Below are positions 103-33,100 of a DNA stretch of 64,000 bases, one piece after another. The position numbers were made by a program, and so were the translations under genes. Source of the stretch: a virus. Its lineage: Duplodnaviria > Caudoviricetes. The stretch is from positions 11,866 to 75,865 of IMG/VR virus record IMGVR_UViG_2874444136_000005; one strand, written 5' to 3'. The notes beneath the pieces were generated by a model. The model worked only from the letters and a program-made list of their open reading frames with translations. It did no database searches and had not been told where the DNA came from. Every line of letters starts with the position of its first letter. Positions within the stretch are counted from its first letter, which is position 1.

Positions 103-1377
103 TTACGGATTGCCGAAGAACTGGCCGCCCATGTGTGGGTTGAAGCACACGTAGGCTGGCAGCAGGTCGAAACGCATTTTCTGCACGTTGGCGTCGCCGT
201 CCGAGTATTTGTGTACTCGGATAGAGAAGCCTTCGTAAGTTGCTACTGCAGAGTCGATGCTGTTCAGTTTTGGCAGAGGAATGGTGCCCAGGCCGCAGAA
301 GAACTTGTTGTAGAACAGGTTCGGCTTCATGGTCTGGCTTGCGGTACCGATTACAGTCACCGAGTCACCCGCTGCAACCTGACGGCTTACTGCGTTGTAC
401 TGTGAGTTGGTGGTGTCGTAAATCGGAACGCCGGACAGCGTAACTGTAACCGCGCCGCCTGCGGTGGAGTTTGCATCGGCCAGAACGGTTGCAGTGAAGC
501 TGATAGGTGCAGAGCCGTTATAAAGCACTTGCTTGCTCTGCTGCTGCAGCCAGTAGGTGTTAGTGAACTTAATCTGGTCGCCAGCTTTCAGGAAGCCGGT
601 TACAGATGCGGTTGCGCCGGTCAATGTCACCTGGAACTGGTAGGTGTCTTTCACCGCGTTATAGGTCACGGTCGGAGCGGTTTGCACTGTCAGCGTGCCA
701 CCGAATGCACCTTGCGTGCGGGATGCCAGGCCATTAGACATCAGCGCGCGAATTCCGCCGAAGTTAGTGGAGATCTGCGCGTTTTCCCAGGCCGTACGAA
801 CCAATTGGTCGGCAGCGTGCAGACCAGATTGCGCGTCGGCCAGGCGCTGTGCAGACCACGGATCCATTACCGCATAGTTCTCACCCTCAACCACACCCAA
901 ATCCTTCAGGAATGATGCGGTTTGAGCCACATCAGACCATTTGTTGATCGGGGTGTTGGGGCTGCCCAGAGCCAGTGCGCCGTTGTTCATCATGAACTTG
1001 GCCAGCTCAGTCTCCAGGTCAGTTACGATGCGCTGGCGAACCGGAGCCAGGATTTCTTCCAGCTGGTTCAGCTTGATAGCTTCTTCCAGTTGCTGATACT
1101 CGACGGCAACAGTGATGTAGTTGCCGACGCGGCCAGTTGCTTTGCCGGAGATCAGGTTGTTCTTCGATTGACCGGAAATGTCACCGGTAGGAGTGCGCAG
1201 CGATGAGAACTGATGGGGACGTTTGAAGCTTACGCTGTCGCCGGTATTGGAGTTGATTTCTCCAGCCAGCAATTGACGGTCTACGGTTTTTGCCAATACC
1301 AGGTCGGACATGAAACCAGGCAGGAATTTTTTCAGGACGATTTGACTGACGTTACTGTTTAAATCATTGGTAGCCAT
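103..1377 (-). CDS. Major capsid protein, Sf6/P22-family
   Basis: NVSQIVLKKFLPGFMSDLVLAKTVDRQ...NPHMGGQFFGNP closely resembles Sf6 coat; follows scaffold. Confidence 0.95.
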   Translation of the reverse strand: MATNDLNSNVSQIVLKKFLPGFMSDLVLAKTVDRQLLAGEINSNTGDSVSFKRPHQFSSLRTPTGDISGQSKNNLISGKATGRVGNYITVAVEYQQLEEAIKLNQLEEILAPVRQRIVTDLETELAKFMMNNGALALGSPNTPINKWSDVAQTASFLKDLGVVEGENYAVMDPWSAQRLADAQSGLHAADQLVRTAWENAQISTNFGGIRALMSNGLASRTQGAFGGTLTVQTAPTVTYNAVKDTYQFQVTLTGATASVTGFLKAGDQIKFTNTYWLQQQSKQVLYNGSAPISFTATVLADANSTAGGAVTVTLSGVPIYDTTNSQYNAVSRQVAAGDSVTVIGTASQTMKPNLFYNKFFCGLGTIPLPKLNSIDSAVATYEGFSIRVHKYSDGDANVQKMRFDLLPAYVCFNPHMGGQFFGNP

Positions 1378-1388: not shown

Positions 1389-2276
1389 TTATTCGATTTT
1401 AGCGCCGGGGCAGAGTTTGTTGAAATCATCTTGTTTCGCATCAGCGCCGCCACCACGAACCTCCGGCTCTGGCTTGATGGCTTTCTTAGGCTTCGGTGCC
1501 AACTTCACTTGCTGGCTAATCTGGCCTAAGAGGAATGCTGCGCGAATTGGGTCTGTCTCAGCGGCTACACGCTGGCGTAGTTGTTGGTTCTTGCCCAATG
1601 CATAAGCAACGAGCTCAGAACCTTCGTCGGCGGCATGAATCAGGATTTCCTGTTGAATAACCGGAATCTCCTGGCGAACGATATCTTCCATCTCGCGATA
1701 GTCTTTCACCGGAAGCTTTGCTGCTCGCTCCTGATGCTTCGTAAGGCGCTCTGTTAGTCGTTGCTGCAATTCCTGCTGCTGACGTTGCTGCTGTTGTTTA
1801 ACCTGCTCAGCACGGCCTTTCTTCTCATGCCAATCAGTCATCGCCTGCTCAAACGCTTCTTCGTCGTACTCGCACGACTCAAGGGTCGGCTTTGGAGGAA
1901 TAACGTCTGATTGTGGTTGCTGCGCCTCTGCTGGCTTGGATTGAATCTGCTCAAGCTGGCGGCGTAGCTCCCGATTTTCTTTCTGTGTTTCTTTAAAGCC
2001 CTTGCGAAGCTCCTTCACCCATTGAGGCGCTGGTTGCCCATCAATGTGATCGTCTTCTTCATGGTTGAGGCTAATTTCCTCATCACCGATTTGCAGTGAG
2101 TAATCATCTGGCTGCTCTTCGGGCTGCTCACTTTCGGCCTTTTTCTCTTTCTGCTCTGGTTCTTCCTGTGATTTCTCCTCAGGATTTCCCTTTGCTTCAG
2201 TGATTACTTCTTCGGCTTCTTCCTGTTTTTCAGACCGGTCAATAACCTGACCGTCGATGATCAGTTCGCTTTCCAT
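1389..2276 (-). CDS. Scaffolding protein (Sf6 gp4-like)
   Basis: Acidic/coiled-coil 295 aa between portal and coat; C-terminal FNKLCPGAKIE. Confidence 0.9.
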   Translation of the reverse strand: MESELIIDGQVIDRSEKQEEAEEVITEAKGNPEEKSQEEPEQKEKKAESEQPEEQPDDYSLQIGDEEISLNHEEDDHIDGQPAPQWVKELRKGFKETQKENRELRRQLEQIQSKPAEAQQPQSDVIPPKPTLESCEYDEEAFEQAMTDWHEKKGRAEQVKQQQQRQQQELQQRLTERLTKHQERAAKLPVKDYREMEDIVRQEIPVIQQEILIHAADEGSELVAYALGKNQQLRQRVAAETDPIRAAFLLGQISQQVKLAPKPKKAIKPEPEVRGGGADAKQDDFNKLCPGAKIE

Positions 2277-2289: not shown

Positions 2290-2634
2290 TTAACTCGGCA
2301 TTGAGTCTGCCGGTGACTGTGGTGATGTGGGGATTCGTTCTTGCTGGGATTTAAGAAGGTCGTTCAGGAGCTGAATTGCATCCATAACCCCTTTCTTGTT
2401 GATGTTCTGTGCCTGAGAAAGCTTGTAGACAACGTTAGCCTGACTTTCCTGAGCATCCTGCTGAGCTGTGAACGCCTTAATGACGGTTTCACGCGTCGCG
2501 TTATCAGCCTTCTTGTTCTCTGCCTCGGCCGCAACCATTTGAGCCTGTGCCAGAACCATTTCAGGGTTAGGCTGACTCTGAGCTGCCATCTGCGCCTGCT
2601 GGACGATCTGCTGCTCTTCCTGATTTCGCGGCTT
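2290..2634 (-). pseudogene. 3' fragment of outer-phage portal gene (C-terminal helical barrel), separated by Mu-like insertion
   Basis: KPRNQEEQQIVQQAQMAAQSQPNPEM...SPADSMPS continues in frame from GIAK at 38727. Confidence 0.92.
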
Positions 2635-2724
2635 TGTAGCGCGGCGAAAAATTTCGGACTGTTTAGCGTTTAGTCCTGGACTTCGGAATCGCGCAAAATT
2701 TCAGGGTTTTGGACAGTCCAGAAT
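2635..2724. repeat. Distal end of Mu-like element with putative transposase-binding repeats
   Basis: GGACTGT at nt 22-28 from terminus, as at the other end; further CTGGACT / AGTCCAGAA copies at ~2676 and ~2715. Confidence 0.75.
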
Positions 2725-2749
2725 ACACCGCAACGGCATAAAACGGGCA

Positions 2750-2776
2750 TAAAAAAGCCCGCCAAAAAGGCGGGCT
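2750..2776 (-). terminator. Intrinsic terminator at end of Mu-like late region
   Basis: AGCCCGCC-N5-GGCGGGCT followed by T run on minus strand. Confidence 0.85.
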
Positions 2777-2891
2777 GTTGTCCCCTGGTGAGGCTCAAAA
2801 ATCATTGCCTGTTCATGATGCCCTTTTGACCGGAGATTAGATAAACGTTTGTACAGATCAATAATCATTTATTGATCGTCACAGCCGATCG

Positions 2892-3800
2892 TCACATACC
2901 AAAACGAGACGCTAAAACGGCATCCGGTTCTGATGCCGTATGCAGGAACAACATATCAAGCAGCGAGCCATAGCATGGAGATACGGTGCCGGATGCCATA
3001 CCGCCACCAACAACGATCGGCGCAGTATAGTTCACCAGGTCTGCCAACTTGCCCGTGGTGGCCGTAGCCGTCTTGTCCAGCTTCCCGCGTGTATACCCGT
3101 AAACAACCCCCTCATCGACTTTGAACAGGCCTGCAGCAGGCACATAATCCGCATACGTCGTTGCTGCCGCACCAACAGCCCCACCGGCAACAGGCCCCGT
3201 CCAGGCACTGTCACGGGTGCCAAAACGCCAGGCCTCCGTGATAGCCTGCTGGTTTGTTATCATCGTGCGCATGTACGCCAGCGGCAGGTTTGATAACGAG
3301 ATGCCGATAGTCATCCCGAGCACATCGGCATTGCTCGCGTCACTGAGCCGACCGGCAATCATATAGCTGCGGCCAATCTGAACACGGACATTCTCGCGTG
3401 TGCGCAGATAGGTGCCGCCGCTGGAGGTGATCCGTACCGTGGCCGTCTTATTCGTTGAGTCATACCGAACGGCATTACCGGTTCCCTGGGCAACCGGAAT
3501 CAGGTCGGTGCTTTCGCCCAGCAGGCTGTAAACGGTCAGAACATCGTTGCCATCTGTGCCGCCCAGTTTGACGCCAAAGGCGGGAGCGGCACACATCACG
3601 GCATTCTCATACATGCCGTTATTGACCAAAAACTCAAAGCGTTCCTTGCAGCCCGCCGCATTCGGAATAATGCCACCATCGGCCTGCACGCGGGCTTTGT
3701 AGGCATTAAATAACGCGGTGGCATCAAGAATGTCCGCCGACAAATCGAGAGGCTCCCGAAAGCCTGCATAAACTTTACCGGTGTTGAGAGCGATAGCCAT
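2892..3800 (-). CDS. Tail-fibre-associated protein (beta-rich, possible LamG/lectin-like)
   Basis: ATG at 3800 with AGGAG RBS, immediately after fibre gene; fold is a guess. Confidence 0.55.
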   Translation of the reverse strand: MAIALNTGKVYAGFREPLDLSADILDATALFNAYKARVQADGGIIPNAAGCKERFEFLVNNGMYENAVMCAAPAFGVKLGGTDGNDVLTVYSLLGESTDLIPVAQGTGNAVRYDSTNKTATVRITSSGGTYLRTRENVRVQIGRSYMIAGRLSDASNADVLGMTIGISLSNLPLAYMRTMITNQQAITEAWRFGTRDSAWTGPVAGGAVGAAATTYADYVPAAGLFKVDEGVVYGYTRGKLDKTATATTGKLADLVNYTAPIVVGGGMASGTVSPCYGSLLDMLFLHTASEPDAVLASRFGM

Positions 3801-3802
3801 AA

Positions 3803-6145
3803 TTACTCCTGGGTTAGCGGGATGCGGTCGAGGCACATCCAGTTGTAGAGGGGGAATGGTGAACCGTTGCGCGTCACCCACCGCGACACGCGCGGCGAGG
3901 AGTCACGGAAACAGGTCAACGGATAAACAGAGTCGTTTTCTGGTGAATGTTCTGCGGTGTTGGTGAACCCCATCAGCAGTGCATCCGTTGCCGCCGGTGC
4001 CTGGTCAAATACGACACGAATGATATTGCCATCGACGATAGTGATGCTTTGCACGGTGGCTGAGTTATTTTCGAGGCTAATCCCTTTATTCAGGCAGTCG
4101 GCAATAAAGTCAGCGTCGATAACAATCGGCGCAAACGGCACGTCACAAAGTAAATCAGCGATATTATCCGTCAGCGTGACGCTTTTAATTTTTAGCCCCG
4201 TCCAGGTGCCTTTACGCGCGGGGTCATATAAGTGCCAGAAGATGGCCTGCTCTTGATATTCGCCCTGCAGGACTTTCCCCCAGTTGTCCAGGTGACTCAG
4301 CGAGCCGTCCGAATACAACCAATTCAGCGGATATTTCGGGCCGTACATGATCGCGTTGGTCGGGTTATTTTTAACGAACTGGAGCTGGTCAACCGCGACC
4401 ACAGAGAACGGCTTAACAACCACGCTTTCGCCCGTGGGGTTCCCTTGTTCATCGACGCCACCGGCTTTCGTGTTGATACGGCTGCCGACCTGGCCGATAA
4501 CCGCAAGAATCTCGGTGGTTTGCCCTGTCAGCGCCTTGTAATCAGCACGGCGCAGCGCGTAATACGCCTCCATGCGCACCCGATAATCCCCGACATTTTG
4601 CGAAGTGCCGTTGTCGTTATCCGTCTCACCATGCTCCAGCGACACCACATCAACGCTGGCGGGTTTACCCAGCGCCTGGGCAATTTTCACATACCGTTCA
4701 ACCATCGCCAGGCCGTTACTGTAAGGCACGGTGCCTTTCCAGATTTGCGCAAATGCCTTGCCGCCGCTGTTGGCGACCGCGCTAAACATGACCGGCAGAT
4801 TCAAGCCGGCGTTTTCATGCGAATAGAGCAGCGCATAGACAAACGGCAGCTGTTGCCCCTGGCGGTAAAGCGGGTAAACCAGATTGGCCAGCAAATCCAG
4901 CATGGCTTCGGTGATCGGCGTGTCCTGGCTGCCCTCGGGTTTGCCCCCGGCGATGGCCAGCGCATAGGCGCGCCATTTCGGGTCGTAGTTAACCTTGTTC
5001 CAGGTATTCGGATTCGGCCGGTTACCGGCATCACTCGGCACACCCAGTGACTGGCCATCACTGCATAAGATGAGCGCTTTCATTGCCTCCGGCGAGATTT
5101 CAGCGCCACCCCGGTAATACATCATCCCGTAACCTTTGGTGATTTGGCCGCCGGGGATGTAAGTCATCGACAGGCCGGTTGCCGACACCTGGTTTACGCT
5201 CAGAACGGGACGTTCATGCCACAGCAACGCATCATTCCAGTACACGGCAGGCAAGCCCTGATACGGCGTAATACGTGCAGGTTGTTGACCCAGGTTATCC
5301 TGCAGCGCACCTTTGATGCCTGGAATATGCACGCCGCCATCGTCATCAATCGCAAACAGCGCAGACTTGAGGTCAGATGAAAAAATAACGAACTGGAACC
5401 CGTTAATCCGTCGTGCAAATGTCGATGAGCACAGCGCGGCCAGACGCTCTTGCAAAACGTCATCGATACCGAGCACGCGCACATCGCCATTATCATCAAT
5501 CGAAACAATCCCTTTTTTCCCGGTCACATCCGTGAACATTAATTGATAGCCCGGATAGCGATTCGCAATTGACGACGGGATTAACTGCTGTACATATTGC
5601 TGCAATTCCGCTTTCAACCCAGGAAGCCATAGCCCCATATCCCTGTCGAGTGCAAGTCCGGTAGATACCGGGCCTTCGGCGGTATTGACCGAAAAGGTAT
5701 ATTTAGTGGAAATGTATTTACGCAGCGGGGCCGTCAGTAGCGTTAATCGCGCAATAAGCGCGTTAGCCTCATCAAGGGACACGCTTAATTCATCAACGGC
5801 CTGGCTACTTGGCAAGCGAATGCCGGTTGGCGTTGCCACGCCATTGACATTTTCATAACGCTCAACCCAGTTATTATCAAACAACATCACGTTAAAATAA
5901 CGGCGTGTTTCGCTACCACTATCGATGGCGGCCTGTGCCTCGGCAACAGAGATATAATCCCCTGTTGCCGATTGCAGGCGGTCATCAATCATGTCGGTGC
6001 GCTGTTTGAGGTAGGCAGTGCGGTTAGCCAGTTGTTGAGCCTGCCAGTTGTCAGGCCCGCCATCCCCGCCGAGCACGGGGGTGTCTAATTCTACCTGGTA
6101 AATACCGTCTACCCACTCAGGGCTTTCAGGTAACGTCTTCGGCAT
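3803..6145 (-). CDS. Tail fibre/spike with SGNH (sialate O-acetylesterase-like) domain
   Basis: N-terminal LPESPEWVDGIYQVE..PVLGGDGGPDNWQAQQLANRTAYLK fibre motif; GQS, HGETD and DGSLSH esterase blocks. Confidence 0.75.
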   Translation of the reverse strand: MPKTLPESPEWVDGIYQVELDTPVLGGDGGPDNWQAQQLANRTAYLKQRTDMIDDRLQSATGDYISVAEAQAAIDSGSETRRYFNVMLFDNNWVERYENVNGVATPTGIRLPSSQAVDELSVSLDEANALIARLTLLTAPLRKYISTKYTFSVNTAEGPVSTGLALDRDMGLWLPGLKAELQQYVQQLIPSSIANRYPGYQLMFTDVTGKKGIVSIDDNGDVRVLGIDDVLQERLAALCSSTFARRINGFQFVIFSSDLKSALFAIDDDGGVHIPGIKGALQDNLGQQPARITPYQGLPAVYWNDALLWHERPVLSVNQVSATGLSMTYIPGGQITKGYGMMYYRGGAEISPEAMKALILCSDGQSLGVPSDAGNRPNPNTWNKVNYDPKWRAYALAIAGGKPEGSQDTPITEAMLDLLANLVYPLYRQGQQLPFVYALLYSHENAGLNLPVMFSAVANSGGKAFAQIWKGTVPYSNGLAMVERYVKIAQALGKPASVDVVSLEHGETDNDNGTSQNVGDYRVRMEAYYALRRADYKALTGQTTEILAVIGQVGSRINTKAGGVDEQGNPTGESVVVKPFSVVAVDQLQFVKNNPTNAIMYGPKYPLNWLYSDGSLSHLDNWGKVLQGEYQEQAIFWHLYDPARKGTWTGLKIKSVTLTDNIADLLCDVPFAPIVIDADFIADCLNKGISLENNSATVQSITIVDGNIIRVVFDQAPAATDALLMGFTNTAEHSPENDSVYPLTCFRDSSPRVSRWVTRNGSPFPLYNWMCLDRIPLTQE

Positions 6146-6146
6146 T

Positions 6147-6947
6147 TTAATTTCCCCCGTGGGTATAAAAACCATTGTGTAAAATGGTGCCGTTGTGGGT
6201 GATCCCATTTGTTTTTCTAAACTTAACAATTCGCCCCAACTGCCCTAAGTTTGGGTCAATCATTTTTGAGGCATCGAGCAACGTCGTGGCACTGGTTTCC
6301 AATGCTGCTAAATCTTGCTCGTTGTTGATTAAATCCATCTTTTCAACCGGGTCGAATTTAACGCGATATAATTCAACCAAAATATTTTCGTTTTCCTCGG
6401 CAAGGTTGATGCCCTCATAACGCAGACAAAACTCCGGCTCATCATCATTCAGTAATGGGATTGTGGCGTAACCGATATGAGCATAGTCGGCAATAACCGG
6501 TTGCTGGGCGGGGGTTTTGATAAAGCGAACAACCCCCCACAGCGGATCAATTAAATAGTCCACGCCAGCGACAAGCGAATGCAGGACAACGCTGAATACA
6601 TTCTGATGGCGTAATGAAATGGTATCTCCCGCCTTAATGTCGGTAGGTAAAAGTTCGCCCGTCACAATTGCGGATGCCTGGTTAGACCCATTGGAAAGAA
6701 AGAGCAATTGCAAGTTTTCTGTCGAATACTCATGCCATGTTGATGTCACTTTGGCGCTTGCAGAGGTGATATAGCGCTGCGAGTCAATCAACCGACCACC
6801 CAGCGACATTTTGGTTTTCTTCTCATCAAACTCTATTTCAATAGCCAGCGTCGAAACATCACCGACCCATCGCCACGATAAAGCCTGGCCCGCCGTATTC
6901 CGGCGAGCCAGGTAAAGTTTCCCTTGACCGTAATAAAAATCACTCAT
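6147..6947 (-). CDS. Second, diverged paralog of the major tail tube protein
   Basis: Colinear with 16078..16824 (YYGQGK, RWxGDV, LRYEGINLAE, VELYRVxxDP, LETxATxLLD). Confidence 0.85.
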   Translation of the reverse strand: MSDFYYGQGKLYLARRNTAGQALSWRWVGDVSTLAIEIEFDEKKTKMSLGGRLIDSQRYITSASAKVTSTWHEYSTENLQLLFLSNGSNQASAIVTGELLPTDIKAGDTISLRHQNVFSVVLHSLVAGVDYLIDPLWGVVRFIKTPAQQPVIADYAHIGYATIPLLNDDEPEFCLRYEGINLAEENENILVELYRVKFDPVEKMDLINNEQDLAALETSATTLLDASKMIDPNLGQLGRIVKFRKTNGITHNGTILHNGFYTHGGN

Positions 6948-6958
6948 TGGTTACCGCC

Positions 6959-9244
6959 TTATGCCGCAGGTTCTTCCGGTTGCGGCTCCGGCTCCGGAGT
7001 AGGTTCAACATAGTGGCCTGTTGGTAATGTGATGATCCAATTGCTCAGCGATGCAATATCGCCGCGCCTGGCTTCTATACTGACCGTGTGAACCCGATTT
7101 AATGGGGAGGTTGCGGACGAATACGGTAGCGTCAATGTTGCTTCAACAGTATTTGTCGTCCAAACAATATCCCCCGTATCAGGGCGAACGAGTGTAATTA
7201 CATAAACCACCCCCGACTCTGGGCCAATACTGCTATCGAGATAATCAATTAACCGGTCAGCTTGTAATTGCCTGTCACGGTGAGACCAGGTTAAAATATA
7301 TTCCGCTGCCGGTTCTGCAACGAGGGGATAAGGTTCGTCATTTAAACGAATATTTGCCGGCAAATAGGGTTTTGCCTGGCGAGCCTGTAGCGTCAAATGG
7401 TTAACAGGTGCAGCGCCGGCAGCGAGTGTTTCTTGTGCCGTTCGCGTCAACAAACGAACGTCTATCGTTTCTCCCTCCAGATATTCCAACCCATCACTTT
7501 CAATCGCATCCTGGAAGAAACGCAGCTGCGCGCCGGCCAGATGGCCAGCCGGCAACGTATCGGCACAGCCACGCCCGACGGTCAACGCCCCGGTCGCCAG
7601 ATCGGCGGCATCGATACGAACAATCTCATCACCGATAATTGCTCCGGCCCCCACTGCCGGCAGCGTGGTTAATGACGCCTTAAAGGTGGTATCAAAGCGA
7701 CCTGCAGGCTGTGTGAGCGTAACGGCCGGTGTCCAGTCGCCGTTAAGATTACCGCGCCAGTTCACGCCGTCGGCGCGCGTCTGAAGCAGGTAGTTGATGG
7801 AGGCGCTGCTGGGCGCACTGGCCATCACGCCCAGGTAACCGGCCTCCGGGGGAATGGCCGCCAGCTCCGCCGGCCCGACGGTGGCAGCCAGGACGATATA
7901 GGGCAGCTCAATGAGCTGGCTATCAGTAACGGGGCGTGCCGTCTTGTCCGGCGGTGACCAGTTGCTGCCTTGTTCGCCGCTACTGTACGACGTGCTCGGC
8001 ATCCCGAACACATCCTGAATGGCCGTCACCTTCAACTCACCGGTGTCCTGTTCTTCAATCTTTCCAACCCGCATCACCATGTTGCCGATGTTGCGCTCTG
8101 GCAAGCTGATGCGAAAAACGCCGGCCGGCGTCAGCACGCCGCCGCGTCGGTCGAAATTGATTATCAGCCTGGTCAATCCGGCAGCGCGGGTTTCAAGGTC
8201 ACGCTGCGCCAACCTCGCGCCCAGCGCATGGGTCGGCACCGCTTTGTATTCAACGCTCTCCGATATCAACCCCACGTTCTGGATCGCCCCGAGGTTCTGC
8301 GCGCGCACTTCGCCTTCGCTGTTGGTCACCGGGTCGCGGTACGTCACCACAATTTCATTCGGGGCCGCATCGGCGCTGGTGCTGTCGTCGTCCTGCACGC
8401 CCACGATGCCGTTGTCGTAGGTAAACAGCGGCAAGGTATTGGGGTCGTAGTCATCACGTAGCAGCTTGAGCGTCAGTTTGCCCGTGCTCAGGTCACCGTA
8501 TTGGGCTGCGCCGATGTGATCCAGGACTTGCTGCACAAACGTGTTCAGGTCGTCCTGGCGGTTGTAGCGAAAACAGAGGCCAAATCCTTCGTCATAGAGC
8601 CGGTCAGCCGCAATGCGATAGCTGTCAATGTCTAGGTCACCCAGCACCAGCCCGCGTCCCCAGTCACGATTGAGCGCGCATTCAACCAGGATGTGCGCCG
8701 GGTTCATGGCGTGGATCGCACGCAGGTTGGCAATCTGTTCAGTGGTCAGGTCGGCCTCGTCATCAAGCTGCCCCTCGGTGTTCTGCAGCAGAATAAGCGC
8801 CTTCTCCGGATACCACACCGGCCCATCCCAGCCCTGCGTGGTGCGGCGAACGCGGTAAGACCACGGCTTAGGTGAGGCGCTGTAGCAACTGACCAACCCG
8901 CTAAAGAAGGTGGTGACCAGCCCCCGAAAACCCGGCACTAACCCCGTGAGCAACGTCAATAATGAGGGAGACGGCACCTGGTCAGGGCCGCCCATCATCA
9001 CCTCAAGTGTTCCCTGGATACCGCCTTCACCGCCGGTGTCTTCACCCCCGAACAGATTAGGCTTGTCGATGTACAGCGACGTGTTGCCGGCAACCTGGCC
9101 GGGCGTGCCGGCAAACACCGTTTTCTTGTCGGCGCTGATGGCCACAATCTCATTCACCGGGCCACGGCCAATCCCAGCCTGGATATCCCAGGAATATCTG
9201 TAGCCCACCGTGACTTTCTTCGACCCCTTGCCACCGCCGCCCAT
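6959..9244 (-). CDS. Tail tip / central tail protein (phage-tail_3-like)
   Basis: MGGGGKGSKKVTVGYRY, MNPAHIL, NEIVVTYRDP motifs; D3112/B3-like tail synteny. Confidence 0.8.
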   Translation of the reverse strand: MGGGGKGSKKVTVGYRYSWDIQAGIGRGPVNEIVAISADKKTVFAGTPGQVAGNTSLYIDKPNLFGGEDTGGEGGIQGTLEVMMGGPDQVPSPSLLTLLTGLVPGFRGLVTTFFSGLVSCYSASPKPWSYRVRRTTQGWDGPVWYPEKALILLQNTEGQLDDEADLTTEQIANLRAIHAMNPAHILVECALNRDWGRGLVLGDLDIDSYRIAADRLYDEGFGLCFRYNRQDDLNTFVQQVLDHIGAAQYGDLSTGKLTLKLLRDDYDPNTLPLFTYDNGIVGVQDDDSTSADAAPNEIVVTYRDPVTNSEGEVRAQNLGAIQNVGLISESVEYKAVPTHALGARLAQRDLETRAAGLTRLIINFDRRGGVLTPAGVFRISLPERNIGNMVMRVGKIEEQDTGELKVTAIQDVFGMPSTSYSSGEQGSNWSPPDKTARPVTDSQLIELPYIVLAATVGPAELAAIPPEAGYLGVMASAPSSASINYLLQTRADGVNWRGNLNGDWTPAVTLTQPAGRFDTTFKASLTTLPAVGAGAIIGDEIVRIDAADLATGALTVGRGCADTLPAGHLAGAQLRFFQDAIESDGLEYLEGETIDVRLLTRTAQETLAAGAAPVNHLTLQARQAKPYLPANIRLNDEPYPLVAEPAAEYILTWSHRDRQLQADRLIDYLDSSIGPESGVVYVITLVRPDTGDIVWTTNTVEATLTLPYSSATSPLNRVHTVSIEARRGDIASLSNWIITLPTGHYVEPTPEPEPQPEEPAA

Positions 9245-9447
9245 CAGTTGGCCTCCGGCTCAGCTTTGGATTGCGCCAGGCGCACAATCTTGATGGCCAG
9301 GGCGTCGCCGGTGCCGGCCAGCAGCTCGGCATCGATACCGCCATCACGGATGAAGGCTTTCAGGTCTAGCCCATAGCGGGCAAAGAAGGCGCGCAGACCA
9401 GGCGCACAACCGCCGCCGGCGCGAATATCTTCCATCGTAATCAACAT
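9244..9447 (-). CDS. Small tail assembly protein
   Basis: GGCAPGLRAFFARYGLD motif; TGA/ATG coupling to tail tip gene. Confidence 0.7.
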   Translation of the reverse strand: MLITMEDIRAGGGCAPGLRAFFARYGLDLKAFIRDGGIDAELLAGTGDALAIKIVRLAQSKAEPEAN

Positions 9448-9457
9448 GGCGTTCCCC

Positions 9458-9703
9458 TTATTTCTTAATGGCTTCATAGCGGTAATTGCCATAGGCCAGA
9501 ACAAACCAGTCCTCGCTCCAGCAATCGCCAAAGAAGATGCATTGCGGTGTGCCTTCGGTCGGCTGAGGCAGATTCCAGTCATCCTCTGTCGCCGCTTCCG
9601 GGGCGTTGTTCTTTTGCCTCGGTGCCAACGCCGTATTCAGCACATAGGACGCAACAATGACCCCGACGAACTTGGCAACCGCCATCCAACTAGCCGGATC
9701 CAT
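9458..9703 (-). CDS. Small tail assembly protein
   Basis: Hydrophobic N-terminus, PQPTEGTPQCIFFGD motif; GGAGG RBS. Confidence 0.7.
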   Translation of the reverse strand: MDPASWMAVAKFVGVIVASYVLNTALAPRQKNNAPEAATEDDWNLPQPTEGTPQCIFFGDCWSEDWFVLAYGNYRYEAIKK

Positions 9704-9714
9704 AGATCCTCCTT

Positions 9715-10530
9715 TCAAAAAAGTTTGATGATCTGATACGGCGATTTGCCCGGCATGTGAGGCTGGCCGCCGTAGTTCAGAACGTTGTTAAACTTGTCGT
9801 TACAGGTCGCGATAGTGCGATCGCATCCTGGAAAAACCGCCACCACCTGGCCAACGCTTAGCCCAGCAGAGCCGCCGAACAGGCCCAGCACGTTGCCACT
9901 CTGCGCGCGCAACCCGCGCCGCTCTGTCACGCCATCCGCCAGCCACTCCAGATAGCCACCAGAAAACCAGCCGTCTGGAGAGCCGGCCGGCAGATTGACG
10001 GTGATGCTCACGCCATCGAGCGCGCTGATAACCAGACCGCTGACGCCAAACGCCGCCGGCGATACCTTGCAATTGTGGTCATACAGCGAATACGGACAGG
10101 CGCGCCCCCAGGTCAGGCGCAGGCCGCTGCGGGTGAAGGTGCTGGCCAGACTGGCGGTGACCAGCCGGGTGCGGTCTATCGCCTCGCGCTTGACCTCGGT
10201 AATGGTGCCGATCCAGACGGTGCGGAACTCGCCCTGGCTGTCGCCGACGTGCCAGCGATGAATGCGAACGCGTACCGGCTGGGACGGCGGCAGGCCACGA
10301 AAGAGCATGGCCACCGGATTGGCGGTAGGTAACGTGATATCCATCCCATCGCCGGCACCGACGCTCAGACCGCCATCACTGATCGCCTGCTGCTGCCAGA
10401 CGGCACCGGCGGCGGTGATATCCTGATCGGCGTTGGTGTACCGGAAAAACTGCGTATCGCCCCGCACGAACTCATAGAGCGTGACCGGCTGGCCGTTGGC
10501 GGTGGAATACTCAAAATCACTCCAGCTCAT
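9715..10530 (-). CDS. BR0599/DUF2163-family tail protein (gpL-like, Cys cluster)
   Basis: CPYSLYDHNC and PGCDRTIATCNDKFNNVLNYGG motifs. Confidence 0.85.
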   Translation of the reverse strand: MSWSDFEYSTANGQPVTLYEFVRGDTQFFRYTNADQDITAAGAVWQQQAISDGGLSVGAGDGMDITLPTANPVAMLFRGLPPSQPVRVRIHRWHVGDSQGEFRTVWIGTITEVKREAIDRTRLVTASLASTFTRSGLRLTWGRACPYSLYDHNCKVSPAAFGVSGLVISALDGVSITVNLPAGSPDGWFSGGYLEWLADGVTERRGLRAQSGNVLGLFGGSAGLSVGQVVAVFPGCDRTIATCNDKFNNVLNYGGQPHMPGKSPYQIIKLF

Positions 10531-11692
10531 CGCGAAGCCCTCGGAATGTGGTTGATACCTGGGCAAACCCGTCCGCATCGGTCGAGTGTTCCCAGGTGAT
10601 GTCGTCAGTGTTCTGGCGGCAAAGCGCCATCAATGACACCTGGCTGATGGAATCCGCCAGCGGAACGTCACCGTCCAGCGCCAGCAGCTCGTAATCACTC
10701 TGGCGCGAGGCGGTGAGGATACGGCGGTAAACGCGGGTGCCATCGACCAACTGCAGACGCAGATCACTCCGGCCAGGCACCACACCAAACTCACTAAAGC
10801 CGGCAACCGCCACAACCAGCGCATTGCCGACAGTCTGCACAGGGATGAAGTCCTGCGCCTGGCTGGCGACCCAAATCGCACGCTGGCGACCGCGCAGGTA
10901 ATAGAGCTGGCCACGCAGCCTTGCCTGGGCCTGGCGACCAATTTCAGACCACACATGCTGCTGCATGATAAAGGCCCGGCCTGCGGTGTCGGTGCGGTAG
11001 GGAATGCCGACCTCGTTGTCCAGCTCCAGGAGCTGGCGCTGATACTCGGCCGTCAGGTCATCAACCCAATCAGCGTCTTGTTCAAGCACGGGATGCCCGC
11101 GATAGATTGCGGCATTCATCGCCGGCGCAAACGGGTTATGTGCCGCCAGGCGAAAGCGCAGCTGCAGACGCATCAGGCTGTCACTGTGACGGGTGATTGC
11201 CGGCGTATCGGTCAAGACGGCCGGTCGTAGCGGATAAACCCATGTGCCGGCTGGCCACGCCCCTAACGGGGCCGTAACGGTGACGCTGCCGGCATCGATG
11301 CTCTGGATCTGCGCGACGGCCTGGTTGGCCAACATCCCGAAACCTTGTTTAAGCAGCAGGTTATCGCCCACGACAAAATCACGGCCGGCCGCTGGCAGCG
11401 CGATAACCTGGCTACCGGCCGAGATGGGGGCCGACAAAACCGCAACGTCAGGAAACACCGGCATATCCCAGGTGACGCCGCCGGCATGAAAAAGCTGGGT
11501 CTCCAGCGCGCGGGCGTCGGCATTGCCGGCAAGCACGGTAAACTCATACAGCCGGCGCGGCGAGAGACGTCGGGCAATGCGCTGTTCTGCCCCGGACGGG
11601 GAGATCAGGACGTCCGTTTTCCAGGACAGGGTTTCACTGACGCCTTCGGCCCAATCAGGCTCCATCAACCACGGGAGACGAACGGCCATCAT
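10517..11692 (-). CDS. Tail structural protein
   Basis: PDWAEGVSETLSWKTDVL..SGAEQR..R..PRR motif of D3112-like tail proteins. Confidence 0.75.
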   Translation of the reverse strand: MMAVRLPWLMEPDWAEGVSETLSWKTDVLISPSGAEQRIARRLSPRRLYEFTVLAGNADARALETQLFHAGGVTWDMPVFPDVAVLSAPISAGSQVIALPAAGRDFVVGDNLLLKQGFGMLANQAVAQIQSIDAGSVTVTAPLGAWPAGTWVYPLRPAVLTDTPAITRHSDSLMRLQLRFRLAAHNPFAPAMNAAIYRGHPVLEQDADWVDDLTAEYQRQLLELDNEVGIPYRTDTAGRAFIMQQHVWSEIGRQAQARLRGQLYYLRGRQRAIWVASQAQDFIPVQTVGNALVVAVAGFSEFGVVPGRSDLRLQLVDGTRVYRRILTASRQSDYELLALDGDVPLADSISQVSLMALCRQNTDDITWEHSTDADGFAQVSTTFRGLRDELE

Positions 11693-14600
11693 TTACCCCC
11701 AATCATCTGTTTGAGCGTGGGCAACTGGCTCTTCACCCACGTCATCATGATCCGGTTTCCACCTGGTTTCTTCATGGCTTCCCCCATCACTTCAATGGGA
11801 TCGAGCACCAGGTACTGCTGCAGGTTGGTCGTACCGCCGCCGGCACCCTGCGCACCTGGTGCATCAGGGTTAACGGATTGATTCACCCCGGCCGCGCGGC
11901 TAAAACCGGGGTCGGAGACCAGCCCGCCATCGGCGAACGCGCCGAGGCGGCCCTGGTTAACCGCGTGCATGAAGTCCACGCCATAGCGCTGGACAGCGGC
12001 GGTTTTCATGACAAACTCGCCGTTTGACAAGCGAGCCGCGATGCTGTCGGAGGTGCCGGTACCGGGGCCGGTGATCTGGCCACCGGTCGCGGCCGCCACG
12101 CTGGCAGCCGCACCCAGGCCGGAGGACGCGCTGCCGGCGGCGCTGGCGGATGCAATGGCCGAGGCCAGTGTGGCCGCGCCGGTCGTGAATGCCGTCGTCA
12201 ACGCCGTGGTGAGTGCCGTGATGCCGGTGGTCAGCGCCGTGGTGAAACCGCCCGTCAGCGCCGTGCTGCCGGCAGTGATTGAGGTGCCCATGGCGGTGGC
12301 CCCCGCCGTGGAGGCGGTGGTGATGGCCGTCGCGTAGGTGGTCGCACCGGCGGCATCGGTCGCGGTATCGGTGGCTGCATTAACAGCGGTGCCAGCGGCA
12401 CTACCGGCCGTACTGGCCCCGAGACCCAGCAGCCCCTTGAGGCTGTCGGTCACGCTGCCGAGGCCTTCCATCGCCATGCCGGCCAGGTTGCGTGATGCGA
12501 CTTGCGCCATGGCATTGGCGACCGATTTAGCCAGGTTTAACACCGCATCACTGAGGTTTAGCGTGCCATCTGCCAGCCCGTTGAGCGTGCTCTCCATGCC
12601 ATCCTGCAGCCCGTCTTTAAACGCGGCCGTCAGGTCGTCCGTTGTGGATTTCAGCGTTATCAGCTCGTTTTCCAGGTTGGCCAGCAGGTCGCGCATCTGC
12701 TCGCCGGCTTCACCAGGCAATGCCGCCATTTCACGCAGCTGCGGCAGGCTCTCGGTGATTTTGCTGCCGACTTCCTGATGCAATGCAACCAGTTGCCGGC
12801 GGCCCTGCAGTTCTGAGATGAGGCCCGCTTGCACCTGCGCCTGGATGCTGCTCTCTTTCTGGCTGCGGTAGGTCTGCAGGTCATCCAGACTCTTTTTGAG
12901 CGCGTCCGCCCGCACCTTGGCTTCCTGTACCGGCAGCAACTTGTCCAGCCAGGCCAGCCCCTCGGTGTTGCCGGTCTGGGTGAACTCCTTGCGCATCTCG
13001 GCGATGTTGGCCCGCACTTCCGCCAGGCCGCCGCCGAGCACGTCGCCGGTGGCTTTCAGATATTGCGCCTGCAGCTGGGCGTTCTTGGTGGCGTTGGCGT
13101 CCGATTTCTCTTTCTGCTCGCCGGCTGCGATAACCGCCAGCGCCGCTTCTGCCCGCGCTTTCAGCGCCCCGGACAGGCCTTTTTCTGCCAGTTCGTAAGC
13201 CGCGACCTGTGATTTTGTCTTGCCGACGGCAAAGGCCTGTTTCTCCAGCCCCTTGACGTAGGACTCATTGGCCGAGGCGGCCGACTTGGCCGAACGCGCA
13301 GCCGCGTCTGAGTTCTTCTTGTTCTCCTTGGCCTGGTCGGTCTGCTTCTGCAGGTTGACCAGCTTTTCCAGGCTTTCGCGCAGCTTGTCGATATCTTCCG
13401 GTGCCTTGCCGGCCGCCAGCGCCGCCGCAATGGTTTTGTCTCGCAGTTGCTCCAGCTGCTGGGCGGCCGTGTAGGTCGCATCGGCCAGCTCTTTCTCCAG
13501 CTTCGGCCGCAGCTTGTCGGCTTCGGCGCTCAGCGCGGTAAAGGATTCCTCGCTTTGCGCCATCTGCGCCACGGCCTCATCCATCCAACGAATGGGGCCT
13601 GCGTTCTGCAGATCGGTCAACACATCACGCAGCGTCTTGCCGCTTGCGGTCGGCGCATCCATCGCGCGCGCCAGGCGGTTTTCCAGCTCATCGGACAGCT
13701 TGTCTTGCACGTCGCTGAGGTTGTCGAACTTCGGCGTCAGCGCATCGATTTGCTTTTGCACCTCAGCCAGTTTGTCAGTCAGATAAACGATGCCGATCCC
13801 GCTCGGGGCCGGGCTGCTCAGCAGGCCGTCAATCTGCTGTTTAAGCGATGCCGCCTGGCTCTGCAGGTCGCTGAGTTTCTTGCTGTCCTGGGTAAGCACA
13901 TCGGCGTTGGTGCGTTGCTGCGTCAGCGCATCGCCCGTGCTGACCGAATCTTTCAGGCGGCCCTGGGCGCTTATCAGCGCCTCGGTTTTCTGGCGCTGGT
14001 CTTCCAGGGTCTGGATGGTCTGCTGGTGCTGCTGCGCCAGCGCGGCTTCATGCTCCTGGTTGGCCGCATAGGCCGCGCTCAGGCCGCCGACGGCCAGCGT
14101 CACGCCGGTGATGGCCAGCCCCATTGGGCCACCCAGCAGCCCCATCAAACCCGTTCCCAGGCGACCAAAGGTCGATGCAGAGGCGCGGGCGACGCCCAGC
14201 GCTTTCTCTGCAGCAGTCTGACGAACCAGTGACGCAGTCACCAGGTCTTCCGCTTTGGCGCGTGCGCCAGGTGCGGTAATGCCGGAGACTTTGGCGCGGG
14301 CGGCCTGCGCCTGCGCAGCAGCCACGGCGGCTTTGGCTTCGGCATATTCCGCCTCGGCAAGCTGCAGCGTCTCGATGCGGTCGGCACGCGCGGCCGTGGT
14401 CGCTGCAACCAGCGCGGCGACCTTACGGCCGCCCATCACCACCGCCAGGGCAATGGCGGCAGTGGTCAACGTGGACATGTTGCTGGCCAGACCGGAAATG
14501 ACGGCCGCAATCGCTTTGGATGCGCCCAGCGCATCGTTGGTGCCGCCGACGAACTCGACCCAGGCGTTGGCCATTTCCGTGGCGGCGCGGCCGATGGTCA

Positions 14601-15405
14601 GCGGCATCTGCGCAAACTCGCGGTCAACATCGCCGGCACCGTCTTTCAGCGCCTTGAAGACCACCTGCGTGGTGAGCATCCCTTGCTCGGCCATCGCGCG
14701 CAGTTCGCCACGGGTTTTGCCCAGGGATTTCTCCAGCATTTCCATGATGCGCGGCATCTGTTCGGACACCGAGTTGAATTCTTCCCCGCGTAAGGTGCCG
14801 GATGCCAACCCCTGGCTAAGTTGGATGATGGCGTTCGTGGACTCTTCGGCTGTCGCACCGGAGACGATCGCCGCTTTGTTGATGGTGCTGGTCACCTGCA
14901 GCAGTTCGGTCTGGGTCGCACTGCCTTTAAGCGAGCGGGCCATGCGGGTATAGAGTTCGGCGGTCGAGGCGATGCGTTGACCGGTTTCATTTGCCACACC
15001 GATTACCGATTTAAAGGTCGTGGCCGCCTGTTCGTTGGACGTGGAGACCAGGCGAATACGCGCCGCCAGGTTGGTGTATTCATCAGACGTGCTGGCCAGG
15101 TTGGCTATCAGACCGCCGCCAAGCGCAATACCGATGGCCGCCGCCAGCGGCTTGAGCCGGGTCAGCTGGTTGCTCAGGCCATCAACGTTAGCGGCGGTTT
15201 TATCGAGCTTTCGGTTGGCGCTGTCGGCAGCACCACCGACTCGATCGAGACCGGACGCCGCCGAGCCGCCGGCACTGCCCAGCCGGGTGCCGCTTTGGCT
15301 GGCGCTGTCCAGGGAGGACTGCAGTTGCTTGAGGGAGGCCTGGGCGCTTTTTAAATCCGCCTGAATACGCAGGCGCAATTCCAGGTTGCCGTTTCCGCTT
15401 GCCAT
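11689..15405 (-). CDS. Tail tape measure protein
   Basis: 1238 aa Ala-rich; QLSQGLASGTLRGEEFNSV; C-terminal GPGTGTSDSIAARLSNGEFV. Confidence 0.95.
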   Translation of the reverse strand: MASGNGNLELRLRIQADLKSAQASLKQLQSSLDSASQSGTRLGSAGGSAASGLDRVGGAADSANRKLDKTAANVDGLSNQLTRLKPLAAAIGIALGGGLIANLASTSDEYTNLAARIRLVSTSNEQAATTFKSVIGVANETGQRIASTAELYTRMARSLKGSATQTELLQVTSTINKAAIVSGATAEESTNAIIQLSQGLASGTLRGEEFNSVSEQMPRIMEMLEKSLGKTRGELRAMAEQGMLTTQVVFKALKDGAGDVDREFAQMPLTIGRAATEMANAWVEFVGGTNDALGASKAIAAVISGLASNMSTLTTAAIALAVVMGGRKVAALVAATTAARADRIETLQLAEAEYAEAKAAVAAAQAQAARAKVSGITAPGARAKAEDLVTASLVRQTAAEKALGVARASASTFGRLGTGLMGLLGGPMGLAITGVTLAVGGLSAAYAANQEHEAALAQQHQQTIQTLEDQRQKTEALISAQGRLKDSVSTGDALTQQRTNADVLTQDSKKLSDLQSQAASLKQQIDGLLSSPAPSGIGIVYLTDKLAEVQKQIDALTPKFDNLSDVQDKLSDELENRLARAMDAPTASGKTLRDVLTDLQNAGPIRWMDEAVAQMAQSEESFTALSAEADKLRPKLEKELADATYTAAQQLEQLRDKTIAAALAAGKAPEDIDKLRESLEKLVNLQKQTDQAKENKKNSDAAARSAKSAASANESYVKGLEKQAFAVGKTKSQVAAYELAEKGLSGALKARAEAALAVIAAGEQKEKSDANATKNAQLQAQYLKATGDVLGGGLAEVRANIAEMRKEFTQTGNTEGLAWLDKLLPVQEAKVRADALKKSLDDLQTYRSQKESSIQAQVQAGLISELQGRRQLVALHQEVGSKITESLPQLREMAALPGEAGEQMRDLLANLENELITLKSTTDDLTAAFKDGLQDGMESTLNGLADGTLNLSDAVLNLAKSVANAMAQVASRNLAGMAMEGLGSVTDSLKGLLGLGASTAGSAAGTAVNAATDTATDAAGATTYATAITTASTAGATAMGTSITAGSTALTGGFTTALTTGITALTTALTTAFTTGAATLASAIASASAAGSASSGLGAAASVAAATGGQITGPGTGTSDSIAARLSNGEFVMKTAAVQRYGVDFMHAVNQGRLGAFADGGLVSDPGFSRAAGVNQSVNPDAPGAQGAGGGTTNLQQYLVLDPIEVMGEAMKKPGGNRIMMTWVKSQLPTLKQMIGGK

Positions 15406-15428
15406 GCTTGATCACCGTCGGTATGAGT

Positions 15429-15452
15429 AAAACCCCGCCGGTCAGCGGGGTG
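15429..15452 (-). terminator. Terminator-like hairpin between chaperone and tape measure genes
   Basis: ACCCCGC-N5-GCGGGGT followed by TTT on minus strand. Confidence 0.5.
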
Positions 15453-15464
15453 GAAGGAGGGAAA

Positions 15465-15752
15465 TTAACGCCGTTTTAAAGCCTGTTTGAACTTGTCGAT
15501 ATACCCCTTTAACGTCTTTCCCCCCGCGAAACTGGCGCTGCCGTCAAGGGTGTGGTGCATTCGCTCCGTCAGCTCTCGCTTTAGTGCCTGCTCATGAAAC
15601 AGCTTTAACTGGCGGGCGGTGTAGTGTCTGAGTTCGCCGAATCGGTGGCCGTGGTCGATGAGGCAACTGAAGACCTCTCCCCAGGGGGCGGGTTTTGCAG
15701 CTGCTGCACCAGCCTGGTGAGCGCCGGGCGAATGGCGTTGCGGGTAAAAAAA
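15465..15752 (-). CDS. -1 frameshift extension of tail assembly chaperone (gpGT-like)
   Basis: T TTT TTT heptamer at 15746..15752; -1 frame open to 15465. Confidence 0.7.
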   Translation of the reverse strand, partial: FFYPQRHSPGAHQAGAAAAKPAPWGEVFSCLIDHGHRFGELRHYTARQLKLFHEQALKRELTERMHHTLDGSASFAGGKTLKGYIDKFKQALKRR

Positions 15753-16078
15753 GCCGCGTTGACGCCCCACCAAATCAACAGCAGCCTTTCGCTGTCTTCC
15801 CCAGTCAGACCCGCGACCCATTCGACGCTGCGGCCACAGGAGACCGCTACCGCCTGCAGCACCGCATCCCAGTTCGCCCCGAGTACGTCGTACAGCTCAT
15901 CAATCGACACCTCGGCATCCGGCTTGGCGTTCATCGCATCCATGAACCCTTCGCTGATTGCCTTGAGCGGTTGACGGTGCTGCAGCTGCTCTGCCAGCGT
16001 GTACTCATGCACCGTGACCTGGACGCCGCAGATAGTCAGCGTCCGGTCAGGTATCAGGATGTTCAGCTCATCCGTCAT
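15605..16078 (-). CDS. Tail assembly chaperone (gpG-like)
   Basis: Between tail tube and tape measure genes; WWGVNAAFF then slippery site. Confidence 0.8.
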   Translation of the reverse strand: MTDELNILIPDRTLTICGVQVTVHEYTLAEQLQHRQPLKAISEGFMDAMNAKPDAEVSIDELYDVLGANWDAVLQAVAVSCGRSVEWVAGLTGEDSERLLLIWWGVNAAFFTRNAIRPALTRLVQQLQNPPPGERSSVASSTTATDSANSDTTPPAS

Positions 16079-17898: not shown

Positions 17899-17900
17899 GG

Positions 17901-18443: not shown

Positions 18444-18456
18444 AGCAACGTTCTCC

Positions 18457-18480
18457 CGCTACGCCCCACAGGGCGTAGCG
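18457..18480. other. Stable hairpin after major head gene
   Basis: CGCTACGCCC-CACA-GGGCGTAGCG perfect 10-bp stem, no U-tract. Confidence 0.6.
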
Positions 18481-18502
18481 TCATCAGAAAGTGACGGGCG
18501 GC

Positions 18503-20568: not shown

Positions 20569-20574
20569 GCTGCC

Positions 20575-27414: not shown

Positions 27415-27416
27415 GG

Positions 27417-29206: not shown

Positions 29207-29207
29207 C

Positions 29208-33099: not shown

Positions 33100-33100
33100 A

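Follow-up and report, generated by a model that had tools for sequence, protein, structure and literature searches.

The locus described here raises the question why a phage with a non-contractile tail should carry a second tail tube gene, and why this gene should end in an additional peptide and stand directly in front of a fibre gene of a type known from myoviruses. It lies in a window of 64,000 nucleotides (nt) from a provirus record (IMG/VR IMGVR_UViG_2874444136_000005, positions 11,866 to 75,865; coordinates below are those of the window, which is the whole stretch analysed) and comprises a tube paralogue of 266 amino acids (aa; P0001; 6147..6947, minus strand) with a JBD30-type tube fold and a C-terminal tail, and the fibre gene downstream of it. 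We consider it probable that this old and maintained paralogue of a JBD30-type tube protein serves as adaptor in an accessory cassette, made up of this adaptor, the fibre and a further gene, at the right-hand end of a Mu-like transposable siphophage, and that its C-terminal peptide, called the plug in the following, docks the fibre.

The relatedness of the paralogue to the main tail tube of the same phage (248 aa, P0002; 16078..16824, minus strand) was evident in BLASTP, where residues 4-241 aligned with residues 6-243 of the main tube with 102/238 identities (43%), no gaps and an E-value of 1e-71. Both proteins matched phrog_807, 'major tail protein with Ig-like domain' (8.6e-64 for the paralogue, 1.5e-82 for the main tube), and NCBIfam NF052337 tail_tube_6XGR (105.8 and 156 bits, cut-off 60), and the paralogue matched the JBD30 major tail protein in PDB entry 8rk3 by sequence (E 1.6e-31). 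An AlphaFold2 model, built on an alignment of 17 paralogues, reached 92-97 in predicted local distance difference test (pLDDT) in the 10-residue blocks of residues 91-160 and more than 90 in the decoration domain. A Foldseek search with this model returned 8rk3_f as first match (E 1.8e-20, template modelling scores 0.67/0.70), followed by the tube proteins of YSD1 and Chi (6xgr_A and 8vhx_G, respectively), and by this model the paralogue is predicted to retain the whole tube fold, including hinge loop, beta-sandwich and Ig-like decoration domain. The position of the bulk tube subunit, immediately in front of the chaperone and tape measure genes, is filled by 16078..16824 and not by the paralogue, which sits about 9.1 kb away directly after the hub or tip gene; the latter copy is a gene in its own right, starting at an ATG 11 nt past the hub stop, and no frameshift product of the main tube. 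Its GC content is 0.461 versus 0.627 in the main tube. The low GC content extends beyond the paralogue alone over about 5200..7400 of the window (0.40-0.53 in 200-base windows), i.e., from the last ~150 codons of the hub through the paralogue into the N-terminal half of the fibre.

The paralogue carries an extra C-terminus, ...NGITHNGTILHNGFYTHGGN, of ~20 residues, and its class A plug (residues 247-266, ..GITHNGTILHNGFYTHGGN; class defined below) is encoded at 6150..6209 on the minus strand; comparison of the two translations confirmed that the main tube has no counterpart. In the AlphaFold2 model residues 250-266 stay below a pLDDT of 50 and have no secondary structure, and this tail is predicted to be disordered. 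At the junction to the next gene the reading frame closes with ...H G G N and TAA (6149-6147), and a single spacer base (6146) precedes the ATG of the fibre at 6145. From this ATG, which was preferred to the purely mechanical start of the open reading frame (ORF) at 6229 (TTG), the fibre comprises 780 aa (3803..6145, minus strand), opens with MPKTLPESPEWVDGIYQVELDTPVLGGDGGPDNWQAQQLANRTAYLK and matched phrog_4201, phrog_3100 and phrog_4209, all annotated as 'tail fiber protein'. Its N-terminal adaptor domain of ~50 aa (5996..6145, minus strand; class A: W..IYQ.E..DPV.GG..G..N....LA.RT.YLK) is the sole part conserved among the fibres downstream of class A tails, and the same domain was found at the start of the fibres of BcepMu, phiE255, P2-like Klebsiella prophages and others. 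All sequence observations of the original prediction held: colinearity with the main tube (43% without gaps over 238 residues), a position some 9 kb apart and behind the tail tip gene (hub, phrog_1101), higher AT content, the additional tail, and a fibre gene with the N-terminus described there beginning one nucleotide later; likewise, the Foldseek comparison that it had proposed recovered the tube fold.

The relation between tail and fibre was surveyed at 35 loci from species-representative genomes and 160 loci from viral contigs, all collected by alignment-based scans (a single-protein scan of the viral contigs gave only 2 loci), in which the C-terminus of the tube homologue and the start of the next gene were read. 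Counted over 125 distinct tube homologues with complete C-terminus, the tails fell into class A, (H/Y)(N/D)G-x3-(H/Y)(N/D)G.., and class B, ..G-x-I-T-x-Y-P. Class A tails (n=37) were followed by a class A fibre in 35 cases, by the contig end in one, and in one by a degenerate class A domain behind an N-terminal extension. Behind the nine class B tails stood six times an N-terminus like that of P2 gpH (..ILTxAG...AVGDGGG..) and once the contig end; the two remaining followers were missed by the regular expression (regex) through GDS in place of GDG and are class B by eye. Homologues without a tail (n=79) preceded a non-fibre gene, by eye a tail chaperone, in 78 cases and no gene in one; these 79 rows take in L213, in which tail and fibre are both degenerate versions of class A and escaped the regex, as well as L037, the sole frameshifted copy of the paralogue that was seen. 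A class A tail with a class B fibre, or the reverse, did not occur among the 125 homologues. Presence and type of the C-terminal peptide co-vary exactly with the type of the downstream fibre N-terminus, and by eye even sub-types of the class A tail pair with sub-types of the fibre N-terminus. The co-occurrence put forward in the original prediction was thereby found in 35 of the 36 class A tails with a readable next gene (the other one being the degenerate class A) and in 0/78 tail-less homologues by regex, which missed L213; the match of peptide and fibre type stood, but it involves two classes and not a single one.

The same peptides occur on other scaffolds. Of 16 distinct phages that have a class A fibre but lack a tube paralogue, 13 encode directly before the fibre a protein ending in the class A peptide (BcepMu, KP12, phiE255, PhiKM, Pasteurella AFS-2018a, Komp_PAO1_1, Pyei1, Klebsiella 3LV2017, ST512-KPC3phi13.2, ST437-OXA245phi4.1, ST13-OXA48phi12.1, Mulvp2 and RsoM2USA), 11 of them by the strict pattern, and 3LV2017 and Pyei1 by a looser reading by eye. 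BcepMu gp51, for instance, ends ..RYNGAAHYDGQYNHGSS, and the upstream protein of KP12 ..RYNNTVNYDGSYNHGSS. When the upstream proteins of eight phages were compared with Pfam, Tail_P2_I was obtained for BcepMu, ST437-OXA245phi4.1, Bise, 3LV2017 and Pyei1, a T4 gp15-like tail-completion protein for RsoM2USA, DUF2612 for ZF40 and no family for Mulvp2. The strict class A pattern was present in the last 35 aa of only 21 of the 1992 six-frame ORFs (>=100 aa) from the loci gathered by then, and each of these 21 is either a tube paralogue or an adaptor that precedes a class A fibre. The statement in the original prediction that gpI-like proteins carry this motif upstream of such fibres was thus borne out, except that the hosts of class A gpI-type phages are not only enterobacteria and include Burkholderia, Pseudomonas, Pasteurella, Paracoccus and Ralstonia. 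Class B, in turn, ends P2 gpI (..GGVAYDGDVITVYPG) and, mostly by eye, gpI-like proteins of Mannheimia, Aeromonas and C. difficile phages, and by alignment also pyocin R2 PA0619 (PDB 6u5b). It is these unrelated scaffolds that provide the actual replication of the tail and fibre pairing; a transfer of the peptide between wedge and tube scaffold may have taken place in either direction.

Three further cases extend the range of scaffolds. The gpI-like proteins of three Klebsiella P2-like phages (3LV2017, L042; ST512-KPC3phi13.2, L056; ST13-OXA48phi12.1, L058) end in class B and class A peptides in tandem (..GEVITVYPPGYKPDDSIYYDGMTYFDANYRYTEK), and 3LV2017, the one of the three that was checked, encodes a class A fibre (gp28) as well as a class B 'tail collar' fibre (gp30), so that a single wedge subunit may carry two fibres in these phages. 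In the Ralstonia jumbo phage RsoM2USA (L061, 274017-277170) a T4 gp15-like 'tail sheath stabiliser' (PF16724, 1.2e-40) has ..PLYYDGEADYDGVYQSGAGSVE as its C-terminus, and the class A fibre encoded next may be neck-mounted by the same plug. In Enterobacter phage Mulvp2 (L060, 49316-50754) the gene directly after the tape measure, ahead of a class A fibre, encodes a 190-aa protein that has the class A motif close to its end and may represent one more plug scaffold.

A search of 5.8 billion proteins yielded 136 homologues with E<=1e-10; among the best 120, which were listed, the named protein most similar to the paralogue came from Serratia marcescens (97% identity). In a quick tree of 118 rows, without the non-tube proteins P0003 and P0004 and the fragments P0036, P0052, P0072 and P0080, the (H/Y)(N/D)G-tailed proteins fell on one side of a branch with a support of 99 in the Shimodaira-Hasegawa-like approximate likelihood ratio test (SH-aLRT; 64 rows, five of them variants missed by the first regex), while class B tails (..TTGxxGGxITTxYP..) formed another group among the tail-less main tubes. 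The paralogue clade spans Serratia, Klebsiella, Pseudomonas, Orbaceae/Gilliamella and others. Compared with a 97%-identical copy, the ratio of non-synonymous to synonymous differences (pN/pS) was 0.21 (14 synonymous and 10 non-synonymous differences). Tree, spread and pN/pS together argue that the paralogue is old and selectively maintained, and a recent duplication within this genome was ruled out by the tree. The idea of the original prediction, a duplicated tube subunit that had captured the wedge motif, was consequently retained for the tube fold and for a peptide identical in type to the ends of gpI, but not for a recent duplication in this phage.

Only two of 236 phage records with homologues contain two tube copies, namely Pseudomonas phage VW-6B, an isolate with Pseudomonas fluorescens as host, and Klebsiella phage Kp4852-3. 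VW-6B is a siphovirus (PMC7556043). Both records have the order hub, paralogue, fibre, and VW-6B also has the third gene. The paralogues of the window, VW-6B and Kp4852-3 end THNGxIxHNGxYTH(G/R)G.., and the common sequence of their fibres is limited to the first ~50-70 residues. The fibre of the window is colinear with VW-6B gp45 at 30% identity, and that of Kp4852-3 has 1191 aa and carries a GDSL lipase domain. A Serratia phage fibre 26% identical to that of VW-6B contains an acetyl-esterase domain by HHpred (PMC7556043). As a side observation, the VW-6B tube genes gp36 and gp44 (L001) are both annotated as 'putative tail sheath protein', although they actually encode siphophage tube proteins. 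Between the window and VW-6B the hubs are 97.5% identical and the first 33 paralogue residues identical, whereas the remaining paralogue is only ~55-60% identical; this near-identity up to residue 33 and divergence beyond it points, at the level of sequence, to a recombination junction within the N-terminus of the paralogue.

Gene order was invariant in the loci surveyed, the hub directly preceding the paralogue and the paralogue the fibre, and where 10 kb of upstream sequence were available a tail-less main tube lay about 9 kb upstream of the paralogue in all loci but L005. In the genomes of five relatives without the paralogue, whose ORFs were read by eye, no fibre cassette follows the hub: in four the tail genes end with the hub, and the ORFs behind it do not resemble those of a phage; in the fifth the hub is longer and a 365-aa ORF comes next. 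It follows from these relatives that the cassette would be an add-on to a tail otherwise without such a socket. In the genome behind L016 (G002, Pasteurellaceae) four hub copies were noticed (e.g., C12:9688-11909), each with an in-frame TGA at query position ~360, and in the related G001 one hub with TAA; these copies could stem from several Mu-like prophages whose hub is split or recoded.

By its gene content the phage of the window is a non-contractile, JBD30/D3112-like, Mu-type transposable siphophage. The statement of the original prediction that sheath and wedge genes are lacking was upheld, since the Pfam families Phage_sheath_1, Tail_P2_I (PF09684) and Baseplate_J had no match in the whole 75,865-base provirus record. 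In many contractile-tailed phages the gpI/Tail_P2_I wedge subunit ends in the plug peptide, and its C-terminal part tethers the N-terminal adaptor domain of the trimeric fibre. On such a tail as that of the window the body of the paralogue would serve as a scaffold with tube fold and its last ~20 residues as a flexible plug, which would enter the N-terminal domain (~50 residues) of the fibre, whose gene begins after a gap of 1 nt; in this way a myovirus-type fibre would be mounted on a tail that ends in the hub and otherwise has no fibre socket. Homology, fold, conservation and the co-variation of plug and fibre type on unrelated scaffolds are borne out by the comparisons presented above, and the docking of plug and fibre we infer by analogy with P2, in which the flexible C-terminus of gpI holds gpH (bioRxiv 10.64898/2026.09.14.750843). 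P2 gpI is flexible from R153 onwards, and in multimer models this part lies between two gpH chains in a rope-like beta interface (bioRxiv 10.64898/2026.09.14.750843). Precedents in P2, Mu and JBD30, together with the predicted disorder, led us to read the tail as a tether into the fibre N-terminal domain. Two candidates were rejected as models of the plug itself: Mu gp48/gp49 represents a third sequence type and supports the principle only, and the fibres of Pam3 are held by disulfides on the wedge.

As to the place of the paralogue in the virion, the hinge loop is of particular interest. In JBD30 this loop extends downwards to its contact in the following disc or the distal tail protein, and a hinge loop coming from above is received by the L1/L2 loops (PMC11445458). 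Over 16 pairs from the same phage, the hinge loop (residues 40-64) shared an identity of only 0.15 between paralogue and main tube, compared with 0.44 and 0.55 within the two groups, while other tube regions ranged from 0.28 to 0.49 between paralogue and main tube and the L1/L2 loops reached 0.35-0.36. A most group-specific hinge loop combined with ordinary accepting loops fits a ring with a normal tube disc above it and a different partner below. By analogy with T5 p140 the paralogue would tentatively be placed as a ring below the last tube disc and above the distal tail protein; six subunits per ring would then present six plugs, the same number as on six gpI wedges.

Several points weigh against this interpretation of the paralogue as a ring-forming fibre adaptor. 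Linkage of adjacent, co-inherited genes alone predicts part of the co-variation, and since classes A and B moreover form separate clades, the tail and fibre counts contain few independent events. Three of the 16 phages without tube paralogue (Bise, ST405-OXA48phi1.1 and ZF40) have no motif at the end of the gene immediately upstream of the fibre. The confidence of the AlphaFold2 model is only moderate (mean pLDDT 72.6). Regarding a T5-like ring, the paralogue keeps the decoration domain that p140 lacks, and its gene follows the hub and travels with the fibre instead of standing beside the distal tail protein gene. The contact with the tail would have to be tolerant or confined to the conserved N-terminus, given paralogues of ~55-60% identity next to hubs of 97.5%, and the hinge-loop argument for a ring is an indirect one.

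A different mounting is conceivable. One paralogue per hub subunit, i.e., three per virion, could hang from the C-terminal region of the hub with one fibre each and replace the gp54 tripod of JBD30, in which the receptor-binding trimers hang on the hub C-terminus (PMC11445458). The invariant order of hub, paralogue and fibre would suit this arrangement, as would the low-GC stretch that covers the hub end, the paralogue and the N-terminal half of the fibre, and the diverged hinge loop could equally be a contact with the hub. We nevertheless regard it as unlikely: the paralogue keeps the ring-forming beta-sandwich and has invariant N-terminal residues in common with the main tubes, the hub C-terminal tails vary (Pro/Glu-rich, short or PVLNEG-type) and do not track the class of the paralogue, and a six-fold arrangement would match the six gpI wedges bearing these fibres in myoviruses. 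Fused hub-paralogue or paralogue-fibre proteins were absent among 3595 longer candidates, which counts weakly against a hub mounting. The hub C-terminal tail was also considered as a specific socket for the paralogue and rejected for want of a consistent motif.

Distinctly less probable is a minor tube subunit that co-polymerises anywhere along the tail and displays fibres along its length. The model for this is SPP1 gp17.1*, a tube variant produced by frameshifting within the tube gene, which is distributed over the length of the tube and carries an additional folded domain at its C-terminus. It resembles the paralogue in being a variant of a tube protein with a C-terminal addition, but here the paralogue is a separate gene and the addition is predicted to be a fibre tether and no folded domain. 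The full-length, gapless colinearity with the main tube would permit co-polymerisation, and so would the loops accepting the hinge loop, whose conservation is close to that of the remaining protein; however, the hinge loop that is needed to plug the next disc is the most diverged part (0.15), and the gene lies in the fibre cassette, 9 kb off the tube gene, without being its frameshift product. That the protein is no virion part at all, but helps the fibre to assemble, or acts as a decoy, simply by binding its N-terminus while it folds, or else is a duplicate in decay, is very improbable even with a third cassette gene from a family of unknown function, because its frame is intact across many genera at a pN/pS of 0.21 with a single frameshifted copy (L037), the complete tube fold is retained and the same peptide ends structural proteins elsewhere (gpI wedge, T4 gp15-like protein).

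Beyond the ring-forming adaptor preferred here, the two ~20-residue C-terminal peptides might represent portable, scaffold-independent fibre sockets used across tail morphotypes, on gpI wedges, on the tube paralogue, on the T4 gp15-like protein and in tandem with two fibres. This broader proposal is tentative, and we give it slightly less than an even chance. If it is true, the plug picks the fibre and the scaffold, a known six-fold assembly or plausibly six-fold here, sets its site on the virion; moving 20 codons would then be enough to shift a fibre between phage architectures.

The tail module reads main tube, two chaperone ORFs, tape measure, distal tail protein, a 287-aa upper-baseplate-like protein, a 112-aa protein, hub, paralogue, fibre and the gene of ~302 aa. 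The main tube gene is followed by the chaperone genes and the tape measure protein (1238 aa; 11689..15405, minus strand; phrog_2335, 1.3e-257). The distal tail protein (391 aa; 10517..11692, minus strand) aligns only to residues 175-565 of JBD30 gp49 (E 2.2e-70), and between it and the tape measure no gp47/gp48-like genes were found; a distal tail protein without gp49 domains I-II and without such genes beside it suggests that the pilus-binding fibres of the Pseudomonas relatives were lost or never present. The baseplate hub or tip protein (761 aa; 6959..9244, minus strand; phrog_1101) has a Pro/Glu-rich C-terminal tail and aligns with its residues 8-694 to residues 5-671 of JBD30 gp53 (8rk3_o, E 6.7e-134). 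The third cassette gene, ~302 aa from the ATG at 3800 (2892..3800, minus strand; mechanical ORF 2892..3881), belongs to phrog_28256, a family of unknown function, has no Pfam match and is 36% identical to VW-6B gp46, with the alignment beginning at M28 of the ORF. The distal part of the fibre has no sequence match in Pfam or PDB, a 12-sequence profile of the class A fibre N-terminal domain found no PDB sequence at E<=10, and a class B fibre N-terminus gave only chance phycoerythrin matches there. Transposase A (34926..36971) and transposase B (34014..34910) complete the picture of a transposable phage. The ~36-kb Mu-like prophage (~2600..38690) sits inside the portal gene of a second prophage, whose N-terminal part was found at 38694..40520 (minus strand, positions 3-570/681 of the phrog_156 profile) and whose C-terminal fragment lies at 2290..2589 (minus strand, positions 587-662), followed by scaffold (1389..2276) and major head gene (103..1377); a terminase gene lies at 40514..41974.

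The family is already present in databases as 'phage tail tube protein', and the gene order exists in a sequenced, isolated phage; in the literature searched, which did not extend to subscription papers and supplements, no account was found that gives a tube paralogue the role of fibre adaptor or mentions the shared plug peptides. There are few phages in which the fixing of side fibres on a non-contractile tail is known: a paper of 2026 names T5, Ur-lambda, monocin and F-pyocin (PMC13455828), JBD30 is one more, and each solution is different. Mounting by a plug, if true, would be a further and simpler solution, in which a shared peptide links fibre attachment in siphophages and myophages, and would explain fibre cassettes that cross the boundaries of morphotypes. 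For annotation, a tube homologue that follows the hub and has a ~20-aa tail could be read as a fibre adaptor, and the plug, as a short peptide, could be a convenient means to study in laboratory phages how fibres are exchanged.

Among known systems, accessory side fibres have been added to the siphophage tail tip in Ur-lambda too, but there the fibre's own N-terminal collar domain binds gpV/gpM (PMC12617516), while monocin uses a domain of the distal tail protein and F-pyocin the shaft of the central fibre (PMC13455828); none of the three mounts its fibres by a tube paralogue with a wedge-type plug. The tail of JBD30 is closest in its components, tube gp44, distal tail protein gp49 and hub gp53 being clear homologues of those here, and it offers the principle of a C-terminal peptide docked in the centre of a trimeric N-terminal domain, as the hub C-terminus does in its receptor-binding trimer; it differs in that it has no tube paralogue, in that the trimers (gp54 tripod) hang on the hub C-terminus, and in that domains I-II of the distal tail protein (gp49) hold the pilus-binding gp47/48 fibres (PMC11445458). 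Mu anchors its fibre N-terminus on BW3, the gpI-like subunit, by means of an internal 'fiber docking loop' and not of a C-terminal peptide. P2 gpI, in contrast, has its C-terminal peptide directly upstream of the matching fibre, and the class B tube paralogues end like it (..GDVITVYPG), just as the class A tube paralogues share the ending of BcepMu gp51 with the matching fibre N-terminal domain behind it; the scaffold is unrelated, and no Tail_P2_I, sheath or baseplate J gene matched in the record studied here.

The claim of the original prediction that no description of such an architecture is known overlooks T5. In that phage a duplicate of the tube protein, p140, is inserted as a single additional ring where the tube meets the distal tail protein, and the p132 collar, to which the side fibres are attached, is in contact with the C-terminus of p140 (PMC10038345). 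Common to T5 and, by prediction, to the phage analysed here is a duplicate of the phage's own tube protein devoted to side-fibre anchoring in a siphophage. The two differ in that p140 is 9% identical to its tube and has no Ig-like domain, compared with 43% and a retained decoration domain here, and in that T5 requires a separate dodecameric collar, p132, and has the p140 gene among the baseplate genes (PMC10038345). In the present phage no p132-like collar gene was recognised and no extra gene stands between hub and fibre apart from the paralogue, although p132 was not used as a query; the peptide that would contact the fibre lies at the paralogue's own end and corresponds to the gpI plug of myoviruses. 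We read the architecture as a combination, with a tube duplicate employed as in T5 and a fibre tether of the gpI kind.

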